This document shows, one piece after another, positions 44,798 to 49,026 of a stretch of DNA of 64,000 bases; position 1 is the stretch's first letter; each line of letters starts with the position of its first letter. The stretch is from Gammaproteobacteria bacterium (GTDB lineage: Bacteria > Pseudomonadota > Gammaproteobacteria > JBIOEC01). The DNA lies in NCBI GenBank assembly GCA_965279305.1, contig OZ257143.1, positions 1,157,994-1,221,993 on the forward strand, written 5' to 3'. Under the pieces are notes generated by a model. The model was given only the letters and a program-made list of their open reading frames with translations. It searched no databases and was not told where the DNA came from. Both the position numbers and the translations under genes were made by a program.

Positions 44798-44825
44798 AAA
44801 TACTTCATTTGTTAGTAATCAGACT

Positions 44826-44854
44826 ATTTTCCTTGTTTTGTGGGTTACTGTCAA
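44826..44854 (-). promoter_or_regulatory. promoter of the 434-aa gene: TTGACA(44854..44849)-17 bp-GAAAAT(44831..44826), overlapping the conserved block 44811..44832
   Basis: Same architecture and same downstream 20-nt block as the two kinase promoters. Confidence 0.45.
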
Positions 44855-44936
44855 ATAAATGAGGTTTTAGGGTAGGGGAGAGTGACGAAAAGAAGGGGTT
44901 TTGTTACCATGGGGGTCTGATGAAAGGGGTAAAGAT

Positions 44937-45539
44937 ATGATTGGAAGATTATCTGGGGTATTGGTGTCTAAGCAGCCACCATGGATAGTAGTGGATGTGC
45001 AAGGCGTAGGGTATGAGCTACAAGCTTCTATGAGCACCTGCTATCGTTTACCTGAGCCCGGTAATACGGTTGTGTTACATACGCATTTAGTAGTGCGTGA
45101 AGATGCCCACCTATTGTTTGGCTTTGCCGATCAAAAAGAACGAGAGCTATTTCGTGAGCTGATTAAAGTAAATGGTATTGGCCCTAAAGTGGCACTAGTT
45201 ATTTTATCAGGCATGGATGTGAATATGCTGCTTCAATGTGTGAGCGAGAATAATATCGCGGCTTTTGTGCGTTTGCCGGGTATTGGTAAAAAAACGGCAG
45301 AGCGTTTATTAATTGAAATTCGCGATCGTTTACCTACTTTATTTCAAGGCATTCCATTACTTCCAGGTGCTACAGAATCTGCTGCTCAAAAAGAATCATC
45401 CGCCTATCATGATGCTGTTAATGCACTGCAAGCCTTAGGTTATAAATTAGCTGAAGCTAAACAATTAGTGCAATCGGTGGTTCAACCAGAACTCGGATGT
45501 GAAGATTTAATTCGTTTAGCTTTACAATCAGCCAGATAA
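44937..45539 (+). CDS. ruvA: Holliday junction branch-migration complex subunit RuvA
   Basis: MIGRLSGVLVSKQPPWIVVDVQGVGYEL matches the RuvA N-terminus. Contains HhH motifs. The ORF track starts 36 nt earlier, at 44901. Confidence 0.92.
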   Translation: MIGRLSGVLVSKQPPWIVVDVQGVGYELQASMSTCYRLPEPGNTVVLHTHLVVREDAHLLFGFADQKERELFRELIKVNGIGPKVALVILSGMDVNMLLQCVSENNIAAFVRLPGIGKKTAERLLIEIRDRLPTLFQGIPLLPGATESAAQKESSAYHDAVNALQALGYKLAEAKQLVQSVVQPELGCEDLIRLALQSAR

Positions 45540-45555
45540 ATAGTGATTAGATAAA

Positions 45556-47145
45556 TTAGGGTTTAGGCGGTACAGCCGGTGCAGATGGCGCAGGTGCCGA
45601 CTGCGTAGCATTAATACTTTTCATTACTTGATCAAACTCTGAAAGTACTATTTCAGCAATTTTGGCTGTGTGAATCATGGTTTTATTAGTTTTATAATCC
45701 ATTAATTTATTAGCATAATCAAACAAGGGTTTTAATTCTGGTTTTGGACCAAATAAAGTGTAGGCTGTAGGGTTTAGTGTTTCCCCAAAATCTTTATAAA
45801 AATCTGCCCTTTCGAATTCTTGCATAAAATCTTTTGGAAATTGCCGGGTTCCACGAACTAATTTTCCATTCACTATATTATTATCAGGATAGGTGATACT
45901 TGAGCGAATAAGGAAGTCTCTTTTATAGAAGCTGTAAAGCCACTTCATTCCAATTTTTATTGAAGCGCCTAATGAATATAAATCGGTACTATAACTAAGC
46001 GGTTCTGTACCGTAATTTTCAAGAACTTCATCTGGCAAATGTCGTGGTGTTCCATAAAATTGATAACTTTTATTAATATCGTCTAATTTTCTTGAGTATC
46101 CAAAATCACACAAATGACCTTTTAAGTCTGTAGTGCACATAAAATTTTCGGGTTTCATATCACCATGTAAATAACCCGCTTTGTAAGTAATGATCATTTC
46201 CTGAATGATATTTGAGAAAATAGATAAAATAGTATCAATAGTATTAATAGATAAACTGGAAGAGTTTTTAGGATATATCAAATACAAAAAATCAAGACCA
46301 TTGAGCAATGGAAAAACAATTCCTCTTTTAAAAGGTTCTGTTCTGTTTTTTCGTTTTCTATAAAAAGCGAAAGTATTTTGAGTATGAGGAAGACCAACAT
46401 CTCTCATGGTTTGTGCTTCTCTTTCTATATCATCAACAGAATCACTTGTCATAACTTTACAAGCGCCCCACCATGTTTTTTTCACGCCATTGATTTCAGA
46501 TTCCACCAAAACAATTCTTAAAGGGGAGTGACCCTTAGCTAAAACTCCGCCTTTCTTTTTGTTATTTTTAAAAGAATATAGATTATTGTCTGGTCTGAAA
46601 TTTTTATAAAAAGTCAGTGTGTGAATATTTCCATCATCACCTTCTACGCGTAAAACGCTATAACATAAACCTTCTTTTCTACTAAATTTTTTACCTATAT
46701 TATCTTTATCTTGGTAATAAGTATTTATTTGGATGATATGATCTCTAACAGATAATTCGCCTTCCACAGTGATATCATCGAGATTAATATTCGGGAAAAA
46801 GGGTTTGGTTTTTTCAACAAGTTCATCCCGTTTTTTAGCTAATGCTTGGTAGGTCGAATAAACTTCTTTAAATATTTTTTCAGTTTCACTGGTTCCTGGC
46901 AGTCTTCTATAAAATGCATCAGGGGTAGCGGTTACAAGCGTATCAAGAGAATTCAGTATATCTGTAGATGGGTTTTGAAGAAGATCTTTTATTTCCTTAA
47001 GAAAATTTATTTTTGTATGATTAACCTGCCGGTTGTACCAGCCTCTTTTATTAGAAAGAGAGCGTATTTTTGCATCTACTTTGCTGACAAGTTCCAGCCA
47101 ATCAGGCAGAGGGGCTCGGGTTTGTGTTACTACTGTTGGTGGCAT
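45556..47145 (-). CDS. eukaryotic-like (Hanks-type) Ser/Thr protein kinase, paralog 1; Pro-rich C-terminus
   Basis: Catalytic loop HGDMKPENF, DFG motif (CDFGYSRKL) and a GTPxxLPDE activation-segment end. About 55-60% identical to the adjacent paralog, with stretches of identical nucleotides. Confidence 0.7.
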   Translation of the reverse strand: MPPTVVTQTRAPLPDWLELVSKVDAKIRSLSNKRGWYNRQVNHTKINFLKEIKDLLQNPSTDILNSLDTLVTATPDAFYRRLPGTSETEKIFKEVYSTYQALAKKRDELVEKTKPFFPNINLDDITVEGELSVRDHIIQINTYYQDKDNIGKKFSRKEGLCYSVLRVEGDDGNIHTLTFYKNFRPDNNLYSFKNNKKKGGVLAKGHSPLRIVLVESEINGVKKTWWGACKVMTSDSVDDIEREAQTMRDVGLPHTQNTFAFYRKRKNRTEPFKRGIVFPLLNGLDFLYLIYPKNSSSLSINTIDTILSIFSNIIQEMIITYKAGYLHGDMKPENFMCTTDLKGHLCDFGYSRKLDDINKSYQFYGTPRHLPDEVLENYGTEPLSYSTDLYSLGASIKIGMKWLYSFYKRDFLIRSSITYPDNNIVNGKLVRGTRQFPKDFMQEFERADFYKDFGETLNPTAYTLFGPKPELKPLFDYANKLMDYKTNKTMIHTAKIAEIVLSEFDQVMKSINATQSAPAPSAPAVPPKP

Positions 47146-47206: not shown

Positions 47207-47290
47207 TTATTGAGGATCTGAGAGATTATGCAGTAGTAAAAGCCAAATCGGTCAGATGAATATACCTCTAATAAGGGTATATCAGATAAA

Positions 47291-48871
47291 TTAGGGTTTA
47301 GGAGGTACAGCGTGTGCTGAAGGAGTAGGTGCGGATGGTGTAGGATTAATAATGCTATTCATCACTTGATCAAACTGTAAAAGTAACCTTTTTGCATCTT
47401 CAGCTGTGTGGATAGTGGCTTTATTTGTTTTATAATCCATTAATTGATTAGCATAATCAAACAACGGTTTTAATTCTGGTAGTGGACCAAATAAGGTTTG
47501 TTCATTAGGATCCAGTGTTTCGCTAAAATCAGTAAAAAAATGGATGCGAGAGTATGCTTTTACAAAAGGGGTTGCAAATTGCTTAGTCCCATAAACTAAT
47601 TTTCCATCCACCATCTTGTTATCCGGGAATGTTATGCCAGCAGGAACAATGAAAGTTTTTTCATATAATCCTTTATTCCAATCCATCGTTATTTTTATTG
47701 CAGCGCCTAATGTATATAAATCAATACTGTAGTTGAGATATTCTCTTCCGTGATTTTCATAAACGTCATCCGGCAAGAACTCTGGAGCACTGTAAAAATC
47801 GTAACTTTTGCTAGCATCCTCTAATTTCCTTGAGGATCCAAAATCACACAAATGACCTTTAAAATTCAAATCGCACATAAAATTTTCATTTTTTATATCA
47901 CCATGTACGTAATCTTTTTTATGCGTGATGATAATTTGTTTAATAATATCTGAGTAAAATAATGAAAAATTATTAATGGTCAATCTAAAAGAATAATTAG
48001 CGCGATAATCATAAAAATCCGTTCCATTGAGTAATGGAAAAACAATCCCTCTTTTAAAAGGTTCTTTACTGCTTTTTCGTTTTCTATAAAAAGCAAAAGC
48101 ATCTTGAGTATGGGGAAGCGCTATATCTCTCATCGCTTTTGCTTCTCTTTCTATATCATCAAGAAGATCGTTGGTAATAACTTTACAAGCACCCCACCAT
48201 ATTTTTTTTACACCATTTATTTCTGATTCAACCAAAACAGGTCTTAAAGGAGACCGCCCAATAGCTAAAACACCTCCTTTCTTTTTTTTGCTTTTTGAAG
48301 AATATAGATTGGAAGTCATCTTGAGACTTCTATAAAAAGTGAGTGTGTGAATATTTCCATCATCACCTTCTACTCGCATTACGCTATATTTAAAACCCTC
48401 TTTCCTGCTAATTTTTATGCCTATATTATCTTTATTTTTGTAAAAGGTATTGATTCTTTGGATATCATATCTATTAGATAATTCGCCTTCCATAGTGATA
48501 TCATCGAGATTAATATTCGGGGAAAAGGGTTTGGTTTTTTCAACAAGTTCATCCCTTTTTTTAGCTAAAGCTTGGTAGGTAGAGTAAATTTCGTTAAATA
48601 TTCTTTCAGTTGAACTAATTCCCCTATGCTTTTTATAAAATGCATTAGGACTATTGCTTGCGAGTTTACCAAGAGAATCAACTATAGTAGTAGTAGGTTT
48701 TTTAAGAAGTTCTTTAATTTTCTTAAGAAAATCTATTTTTGCTTGGTTGATTTCAGGGGATCCCTTCCAGTCTTCTGTATTAGAAAGAGAACGTATTTTT
48801 GCATCTACTTTGCTGACAAGTTCCAGCCAATCAGGGAGAGGGGCTTGAGTTTGTGTTACAGGAGGTGGCAT
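47291..48871 (-). CDS. eukaryotic-like (Hanks-type) Ser/Thr protein kinase, paralog 2; Pro-rich C-terminus
   Basis: HGDIKNENF catalytic loop, CDFGSSRKL, and a SAPE motif. The N-terminal 130 aa is nearly collinear with paralog 1. Confidence 0.7.
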   Translation of the reverse strand: MPPPVTQTQAPLPDWLELVSKVDAKIRSLSNTEDWKGSPEINQAKIDFLKKIKELLKKPTTTIVDSLGKLASNSPNAFYKKHRGISSTERIFNEIYSTYQALAKKRDELVEKTKPFSPNINLDDITMEGELSNRYDIQRINTFYKNKDNIGIKISRKEGFKYSVMRVEGDDGNIHTLTFYRSLKMTSNLYSSKSKKKKGGVLAIGRSPLRPVLVESEINGVKKIWWGACKVITNDLLDDIEREAKAMRDIALPHTQDAFAFYRKRKSSKEPFKRGIVFPLLNGTDFYDYRANYSFRLTINNFSLFYSDIIKQIIITHKKDYVHGDIKNENFMCDLNFKGHLCDFGSSRKLEDASKSYDFYSAPEFLPDDVYENHGREYLNYSIDLYTLGAAIKITMDWNKGLYEKTFIVPAGITFPDNKMVDGKLVYGTKQFATPFVKAYSRIHFFTDFSETLDPNEQTLFGPLPELKPLFDYANQLMDYKTNKATIHTAEDAKRLLLQFDQVMNSIINPTPSAPTPSAHAVPPKP

Positions 48872-48888
48872 AAATCAATTTTAACGCT

Positions 48889-48932
48889 GTAAGTAATCTG
48901 ACTATTTTCTCAAATTAAGAAGAATTAGTCAA
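48889..48932 (-). promoter_or_regulatory. promoter of kinase 2 (duplicate of the kinase 1 promoter; conserved block 48889..48911)
   Basis: gtaagtaatctgactattttctc is identical to 47163..47185. A TTGACT-like agtcaa lies upstream. Confidence 0.45.
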
Positions 48933-49026
48933 TTTAACCTAATATAGATTAATAAATGTCGGTGACGATAGGTTCAGGGTTTGTTACTATAAGAAACCCC
49001 ATTGGAGTAAGTTTGGAGCAAAAATC

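Follow-up and report, generated by a model that had tools for sequence, protein, structure and literature searches.

We analysed a 64,000-nucleotide (nt) stretch of the genome of an uncultured Gammaproteobacteria bacterium (contig OZ257143.1, positions 1,157,994 to 1,221,993; hereafter the window) and found that three of its genes, a 434-amino-acid (aa) orphan gene and two genes for eukaryote-type kinases (K1 and K2), share a conserved sequence block at their promoters. The block, with the consensus GAAAATAGTC[A/T]GATTACT[A/T]ACA, has exactly three copies in the 64 kilobases (kb) of the window, all on the minus strand. We propose that it is an operator that covers the -10 to about the +10 position of a sigma-70-type promoter and that a predicted dimeric regulator, probably a repressor, binds there, and we assign this reading a probability of about 0.5. 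The recurrence of the block, its position, its conservation and its pattern of variation are direct observations on the DNA, and they are presented below together with four other explanations for them.

Results

The block is a discrete class of sites within three promoters

We scanned the 64 kb with the pattern GAAAATAGTCWGATTACTWAC, which matched at 44811-44831, 47163-47183 and 48889-48909 of the minus strand and yielded no fourth match at up to three mismatches (0 expected, 100 shuffles). The core AATAGTCNGATTACT (15 base pairs (bp), 14 of them specified) has no relatives in the window at one or two mismatches, indicating that the block sites are a class of their own. Matches at three to four mismatches, including those upstream of a leucine-rich-repeat (LRR) gene and of a 599-aa orphan gene, were rejected as noise.

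The first copy (GAAAATAGTCTGATTACTAACA, 44810..44831) precedes the 434-aa gene, with its -10 hexamer GAAAAT at 44826-44831 and the dyad AATAGTC-T-GATTACT at 44814-44828. The second and third copies (both GAAAATAGTCAGATTACTTACA) lie upstream of K1 at 47162..47183 and of K2 at 48888..48909, and their -10 hexamers (47178-47183 and 48904-48909) are each preceded by TGa, as in an extended -10 element. The block and the ATG are separated by 13 nt at the 434-aa gene and by 17 nt at each of the kinase genes. An earlier note on this DNA, made from the sequence alone, had reported the blocks 13-17 nt upstream of the ATG, and its distances, block coordinates and block sequences are correct. The same note had placed the block directly after a GAAAAT hexamer; instead, this hexamer belongs to the block.

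An independent scan for consensus promoters called TTGACA-17-GAAAAT at 44854..44826 for the 434-aa gene and TTGACT-17-GAAAAT at 47206..47178 and 48932..48904 for the kinase genes, the latter two with an extended -10 TG, which agrees with the earlier assignment of a GAAAAT -10 hexamer at 17 bp from a TTGAC(A/T) -35 hexamer. The -35 hexamers occupy 44849..44854 (TTGACA, 434-aa gene), 47201..47206 (TTGACT, K1) and 48927..48932 (TTGACT, K2) of the minus strand. Promoter-like sites are not enriched across the region overall (17 found versus 19.9 in shuffles). At every site, both in the window and in the related contigs L011 and L027/L028 described below, the -35 hexamer is TTGACA or TTGACT, the spacer is 17 bp (16 bp in L027/L028) and the -10 hexamer is GAAAAT or GACAAT, both with A as the second and T as the sixth base. 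Promoters of the sigma-E, sigma-28, sigma-32, sigma-54 and RpoS types were rejected by eye, as the sites carry no conserved alternative -35 element at the needed spacing. A 6-bp inverted repeat is formed in the kinase promoters by TTGACTA of the -35 region (47201-47207; 48927-48933) and TAGTCA at the block start (47173-47178; 48899-48904). Of this repeat, which is probably due to chance, GAC/GTC alone is left in the promoter of the 434-aa gene.

The block serves unrelated proteins at a split ruvAB operon

The three genes are interleaved with ruvA and ruvB, in the order 434-aa gene (43493..44797, minus strand), ruvA (plus strand, starting at the ATG at 44937 and not at the upstream TTG), K1 (529 aa; 45556..47145, minus strand), K2 (526 aa; 47291..48871, minus strand) and ruvB (49027-50037, plus strand). 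The ruvAB operon (44937-50037) is split by the oppositely oriented kinase genes. K1 and K2 contain eukaryote-type Pkinase domains (E = 1e-15 and 3e-13), and the best relatives among solved structures are human DAPK, SIK, AMPK and MARK. As proteins, they are unrelated to the product of the 434-aa gene, for which Pfam, NCBIfam and PDB searches by sequence and by profile were all empty. Among 1.84 billion representative sequences, only its orthologue and one distant 287-aa relative were found, and its single-sequence AlphaFold model is unusable (predicted local distance difference test score of 34). An assignment of this protein by eye to the Ulp1/CE-clan proteases (His...Asp...Gln...Cys) was dropped, because no tool supported it and the sole distant homologue (P0007) lacks the His and the Cys.

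The label of effector-like is reasonable for the kinases, judging by their sequences. The host-interaction regulon and the relation to intracellular bacteria put forward in the earlier note are conjectural; no secretion-system genes are present within the 64-kb window. The C-termini of the 434-aa protein, K1 and K2 are short tails rich in proline and alanine (…APAPSAPAVPPKP, …PSAHAVPPKP and …APAPTPPNITPTPIS, respectively), and a partial protein from the related contig L026 has an AAPAAPAAP segment; these tails may represent a common linker or have a role in export.

The block is more conserved than the genes it precedes

A search of 5.8 billion proteins with a kinase sequence returned three homologues only, which are the query itself, K1 and one protein on the Logan contig L011. 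No matches came from a search limited to the N-terminal domain of the kinase. Contig L011 is syntenic with the window, and its housekeeping genes are 92-94% identical in DNA. It encodes one kinase, with 62-67% protein identity to K1 and K2, and a 434-aa orthologue that is 92% identical; the corresponding sites are GAAAATAGTCAGATTACTTAC for the kinase and GACAATAGTCGGATTACTAAC for the 434-aa orthologue. A third strain (L027/L028) has an identical block, and its -35/-10 spacer of 16 nt in place of 17 nt shows that the promoter geometry is preserved.

Across the three kinase genes (K1, K2 and that of L011), the coding DNA is 72-86% identical and the region from -65 to -1 is 88-92% identical, while the 21-nt block GAAAATAGTCAGATTACTTAC is 100% identical (22 nt with the following A). 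By this comparison, the kinase promoter is more constrained than the protein. The sharing of the block by unrelated proteins, as first described from the window alone, is upheld, and the block is also more conserved than the coding sequences it serves. The kinases themselves evolve very fast, with 62-67% protein identity where housekeeping DNA is 92-94% identical (window versus L011 5015-6592).

More distant relatives have other arrangements at this locus. In contig L025 (83% RuvB identity), proA, ruvA, ruvB and proS are contiguous, and the 434-aa gene, the kinases and the block are all missing. The absence of these genes from syntenic L025 indicates that they are lineage-specific insertions into a conserved proA-ruvA-ruvB-proS neighbourhood. 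Contig L034 (84% RuvB identity), an NCBI metagenome-assembled genome (MAG) labelled Gammaproteobacteria bacterium, has a different orphan of 766 aa between ruvA and ruvB, and the gene divergent from ruvB in L026 encodes an N-terminus that is 35% identical to the N-terminal region of the kinases. Across these relatives, the ruvA|ruvB junction holds nothing, one kinase, a gene resembling the kinase N-terminus or the 766-aa orphan (L025 5070-6748; L034 484-4551; L026 2-1757), and the boundary looks like a recurrent insertion hot-spot in the lineage. The block does not extend beyond one narrow clade. Among named RuvB sequences, the closest come from unclassified Gammaproteobacteria MAGs (84%), followed by generic Gammaproteobacteria (~75%), and not from Legionella or Coxiella.

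The variation within the block was then compared with the proposed dyad, AATAGTC-N-GATTACT. Four substitutions distinguish the sites: one at position 3 of the -10 hexamer, two at the dyad centre (A/T/G) and one at position 19. None of the four falls in the 14 arm positions of the dyad (P about 0.017) and two of the four fall at its centre (P about 0.012), where both values are post hoc and come from a small sample. In L011 the -10 hexamer tolerates a change from GAAAAT to GACAAT, while the dyad arms are unchanged at all sites. The pattern is consistent with a dyad operator whose central base is free. The symmetry of the imperfect dyad described in the earlier note, at 5 of 7 positions, is not significant by itself.

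The copies of the block probably spread by copying of promoter DNA

K1 and K2 are tandem paralogues (65% identical), and their similarity begins 2-3 nt upstream of the -35 hexamer, at the boundary of the tandem duplication, which indicates that gene and promoter of K1 were copied as one piece. Since their promoter lies within the duplicated unit, K1 and K2 count as one independent instance of the block. Between the 434-aa gene promoter and the kinase promoters, identity is 20/23 in the block and 5/6 in TTGAC, falls to 3-5/17 in the spacer and is at chance in the flanks. There are consequently two independent promoter classes, which share two islands in the same register.

On their ruv side, the two intergenic regions have a second block in common. 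It reads GTGACG-N17-TACCAT upstream of ruvA (44882..44910, plus strand) and GTGACG-N17-TACTAT upstream of ruvB (48962..48990, plus strand), in each case with TGt before the -10 hexamer and with a similar spacer end, GGG(G)TTT(T)GT. These blocks would be the ruvA and ruvB promoters, back to back with the promoters of the 434-aa gene and K2, respectively. The distance from the ruv-side TCGTCAC to the opposite TTGAC is 27 nt in one intergenic region and 29 nt in the other. The ruv-side block is also seen in L011 and is partly kept upstream of ruvB in L026. When the ruv-proximal halves are aligned locally, their similarity is marginal (p about 0.05), and an exact-pattern test is circular, as its pattern derives from the same two sequences.

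The presence of two collinear shared blocks in the 434-ruvA and K2-ruvB regions suggests a copied bidirectional promoter cassette, and the sharing of the operator-like block probably began in this way and not by independent origin. Alternatively, the ruv-side block suggests a common ruv control site. The earlier note had argued that duplication cannot explain a block shared by non-homologous proteins. The proteins are indeed unrelated, but the argument was too strong, given the tandem duplication of K1 and K2 with their promoter and the collinear block on the ruv side.

The same observations would allow an explanation with no dedicated regulator at all, in which the block was inherited within the promoter cassette, through the split of ruvAB and the duplication of K1 and K2, and was kept because it makes a good core promoter, discriminator and initial transcribed sequence. 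The collinear ruv-side block with its 27/29-nt spacing is what such inheritance would leave behind, a K1 promoter copy that starts 2-3 nt upstream of the -35 hexamer is what a duplication would carry, and a regulator gene was not found beside the targets. The 16 invariant positions downstream of the -10 hexamer, however, far exceed what RNA polymerase is known to contact, and it is the -10 hexamer that changes in L011 while the dyad arms never do. Moreover, the spacer and the DNA between the promoters are at chance, which implies that the copy is old and that the block is actively maintained. We consider inheritance alone unlikely. Because the DNA between the islands has decayed to chance and the 22-nt block has been kept, the copying of a cassette does not weaken the inference that the block has a function.

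The leaders and the insertions allow other, less probable roles for the block

A start of transcription about 7 nt after GAAAAT would put some 10 conserved bases into the transcript, and the block could then act as RNA. Its transcribed half, 5'-(A/G)AUUACU(A/U)ACA, would be the target of a small RNA or an RNA-binding protein, or a signal for initiation without a Shine-Dalgarno sequence. No Shine-Dalgarno sequence can be recognised in the kinase leaders (47146-47162, 48872-48888), and the 434-aa gene offers GAAG only, which would suit such a signal, and the entire kinase leader is 88-92% conserved. Against this, the predicted 5' leaders fold no better than shuffled sequences (z of +0.2 to +1.5), which argues against RNA structure; the transcribed part has no GGA motif of the CsrA type; and no complementary sequence was found elsewhere in the window. 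The half that would not be transcribed, AATAGTC, is just as invariant and is left unexplained. An RNA element is in our judgement quite unlikely.

The kinase leaders also contain TAAAAT 6 nt before the ATG, which is the geometry of a leaderless mRNA. In K1 and K2, this hexamer and the lack of a Shine-Dalgarno sequence would allow TAAAAT to serve as the -10 element, with the block just upstream of it as the site of an activator of the kind known from Legionella (PmrA, LuxR or LysR). The six known auxiliary effector regulators of Legionella are all activators, with sites at a fixed distance upstream of the -10 element (PMC13555631). This arrangement fits the kinase genes only, as the 434-aa gene has no comparable -10 element between the block and its ATG, and L011 has TAAGAT in place of TAAAAT. 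Nor does it account for the TTGAC that both promoter classes have at a spacing of exactly 16-17 bp from GAAAAT. We regard an activator site as improbable.

The three genes are all lineage-specific insertions, and the ruvA|ruvB junction holds different orphan genes in different relatives, raising the question of whether the block was left behind by the end of a mobile element or by a recombination site. At the other ends of the inserts, no inverted or direct partner was found on either strand, even at three mismatches. The register of the block is fixed with respect to the -35 hexamer, the -10 hexamer and the ATG, and the matches to the block in phage and metagenome sequences are isolated and lie outside this context. 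Such a remnant is therefore the least probable source of the block, and we give it very little weight.

The block resembles none of the regulator sites compared

The consensus sites of PmrA, CpxR, Fur, LetA/GacA, LexA and IHF matched five upstream regions no better than shuffled sequences (p of 0.27-1.0). The comparison with PmrA, CpxR and LetA site models, put forward when the block was first noted, thus gave matches at chance for the consensus strings used.

Discussion

In the mechanism we favour, each of the three genes would be transcribed from a sigma-70-type promoter, TTGAC(A/T)-N16/17-GA(A/C)AAT, whose -10 to about +10 region would hold a 15-bp operator, AATAGTC-N-GATTACT (half-site ARTARTC), with conserved flanks. 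Where a near-consensus -35 hexamer, the right spacing and an acceptable -10 hexamer are already present, an additional invariant element is best read as the operator of a repressor. One sequence-specific DNA-binding protein, probably a dimeric helix-turn-helix (HTH) repressor, is predicted to bind there and would block RNA polymerase or the formation of the open complex. On its release, the acquired kinase genes and the orphan gene would be turned on together. The site was probably disseminated when promoter DNA was copied, through the tandem duplication for K1 and K2 and through a bidirectional cassette of ruv and accessory-gene promoters for the 434-aa gene and K2, after which selection would have retained the site while neutral positions were randomised. 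The transcription start sites, the binding of a protein, repression and co-regulation are all predictions of this mechanism.

Several observations weigh against the operator. The arms of the dyad are complementary at 5 of 7 positions, and 18-27% of shuffled 22-mers do as well. The block is known from only three genomes, all close relatives of each other, and from only two independent promoter classes. In L026, which has 90% RuvB identity, the gene at the same place has a TTGACA-16-TACAAT promoter and no block. Searches for further members of a regulon found none in the window, the GTDB species representatives, the JGI metagenomes or IMG/VR: the exact-pattern scan of the GTDB species genomes returned 10 isolated matches in unrelated taxa, none of the 12 matches in the JGI metagenomes has the TTGAC/-10/ATG context, and the 5 matches in IMG/VR are isolated. 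(Three look-alike JGI matches, L015, L016 and L019, were rejected because they lie at the junction of convergent open reading frames.) Finally, no candidate regulator gene adjoins the targets, whose neighbours are ruvA, ruvB, proA, proS, a transporter gene and msrA; no LuxR, LysR or response-regulator domains occur within about 10 kb of the targets; and the window has a single small HTH gene, of the XRE type (63477-63794), at a distance of 15 kb.

The proposed operator can be compared with three kinds of known system. Classical repressor operators that lie over the -10 element or the start of transcription include those of TetR/tetO, the lambda type, the XRE type with an odd central base, and the LexA boxes. 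Like the block, they are palindromic sites of 15-19 bp with a free central base, located over the -10/+1 region of a good sigma-70 promoter, and one site may control several promoters. The block differs from them in a sequence that is unrelated to any tested and in a symmetry limited to 5/7, and its binding and its repressor are predictions.

The PmrA and CpxR sites have the consensus TTAATATT-N2-TTAATATT and GTAAA-N6-GTAAA, respectively, and both are tandem direct repeats located upstream of the -10 element. The regulons of these two regulators, which contain the Dot/Icm effectors of Legionella and Coxiella, resemble the present case in that many effector genes have one regulator site near the promoter. 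The block, in contrast, is a dyad located over the -10 hexamer.

The closest parallel in organisation is offered by the auxiliary effector regulators of Legionella studied in the Segal laboratory, namely LexR1, RegK3, LelA/B/C and LciRS (PMC13555631, PMC12239595). Their elements, like the block, are short, recur at a fixed promoter position of a few non-homologous, acquired, effector-type genes and travel with these genes, and they are often inverted repeats. The Legionella elements lie upstream of the -10 element and replace the -35 element (PMC13555631), whereas the block covers the -10 to about +10 region and leaves the -35 hexamer intact. In addition, the Legionella regulators are activators and are usually encoded beside a target, whereas no regulator gene adjoins the block, and by RuvB similarity the organism that carries the block is not a Legionella. 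The arms affected by the printed LexR1 mutations (GTC...GAC) have their triplets in a different order from the GTC-N-GAT of the block, in a comparison that covered the positions of these mutations. The block may act as in a local regulon of the Legionella type, yet it is a member of no described one.

It is well established that co-regulated virulence or effector genes share cis-elements, and the evidence here is sequence conservation within one narrow clade. The block is real and conserved, and a new operator, in a lineage not studied before, is a plausible reading of it. If so, AATAGTC-N-GATTACT over a -10 hexamer would provide a search key for other accessory-regulon genes, and its regulator could be sought by DNA affinity; this key would be useful in a lineage without genetics and almost without annotated relatives. 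An operator would also show how eukaryote-like genes, once acquired, can come under regulation through the copying of a whole bidirectional promoter cassette. A fuller scenario, in which a dedicated repressor silences recently acquired host-targeting genes (the eukaryote-like kinases and the orphan) until a host cue arrives, in a lineage outside Legionella and Coxiella, and in which the site spreads by cassette copying into a hot-spot that splits ruvAB, is one that we put forward tentatively and hold to be doubtful as a whole. If it were true, the system would mirror, with a repressor, the local effector regulons that activators control in Legionella.

Other features of the window

Just downstream of the 434-aa gene, at 43340-43454, lies an element that resembles a miniature inverted-repeat transposable element (MITE) or a repetitive extragenic palindrome (REP), with 32-nt arms (97% complementary) and a 51-nt core. 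The corresponding site of L011 (about 13640-13680) lacks this element, and the intergenic region there is 32 nt versus 191 nt in the window. The 57-nt core of the element recurs at 1247-1303 and 7470-7526.

Another lineage-specific insertion, between radA and glyA (54241-56669), contains two orphan genes without a family match, one of 159 aa (minus strand) and one of 599 aa (plus strand) with probable membrane segments; it is identified as an insertion by the adjacency of radA and glyA in L025. This segment carries no copy of the block. At 29631-31947, a gene for an RpoS-like sigma factor (339 aa, with regions 1.2, 2, 3 and 4) is followed by that of a 405-aa LRR_6 protein. Judging by its sequence, this eukaryote-type leucine-rich-repeat protein is possibly another host-interaction gene product, with an unrelated promoter region.

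The only Rfam match in the window is the RNase P RNA of bacterial class A (27746-28116, plus strand, 311 bits). A PIN-domain gene (27006-27404, minus strand) abuts rsmI, with a near-perfect palindrome, AATCATCTGATTATT, at the junction (26992-27006). Finally, a 207-aa open reading frame that has no family match (1433-2056, minus strand) contains an exact tandem duplication of a 36-nt unit at 1490-1561.

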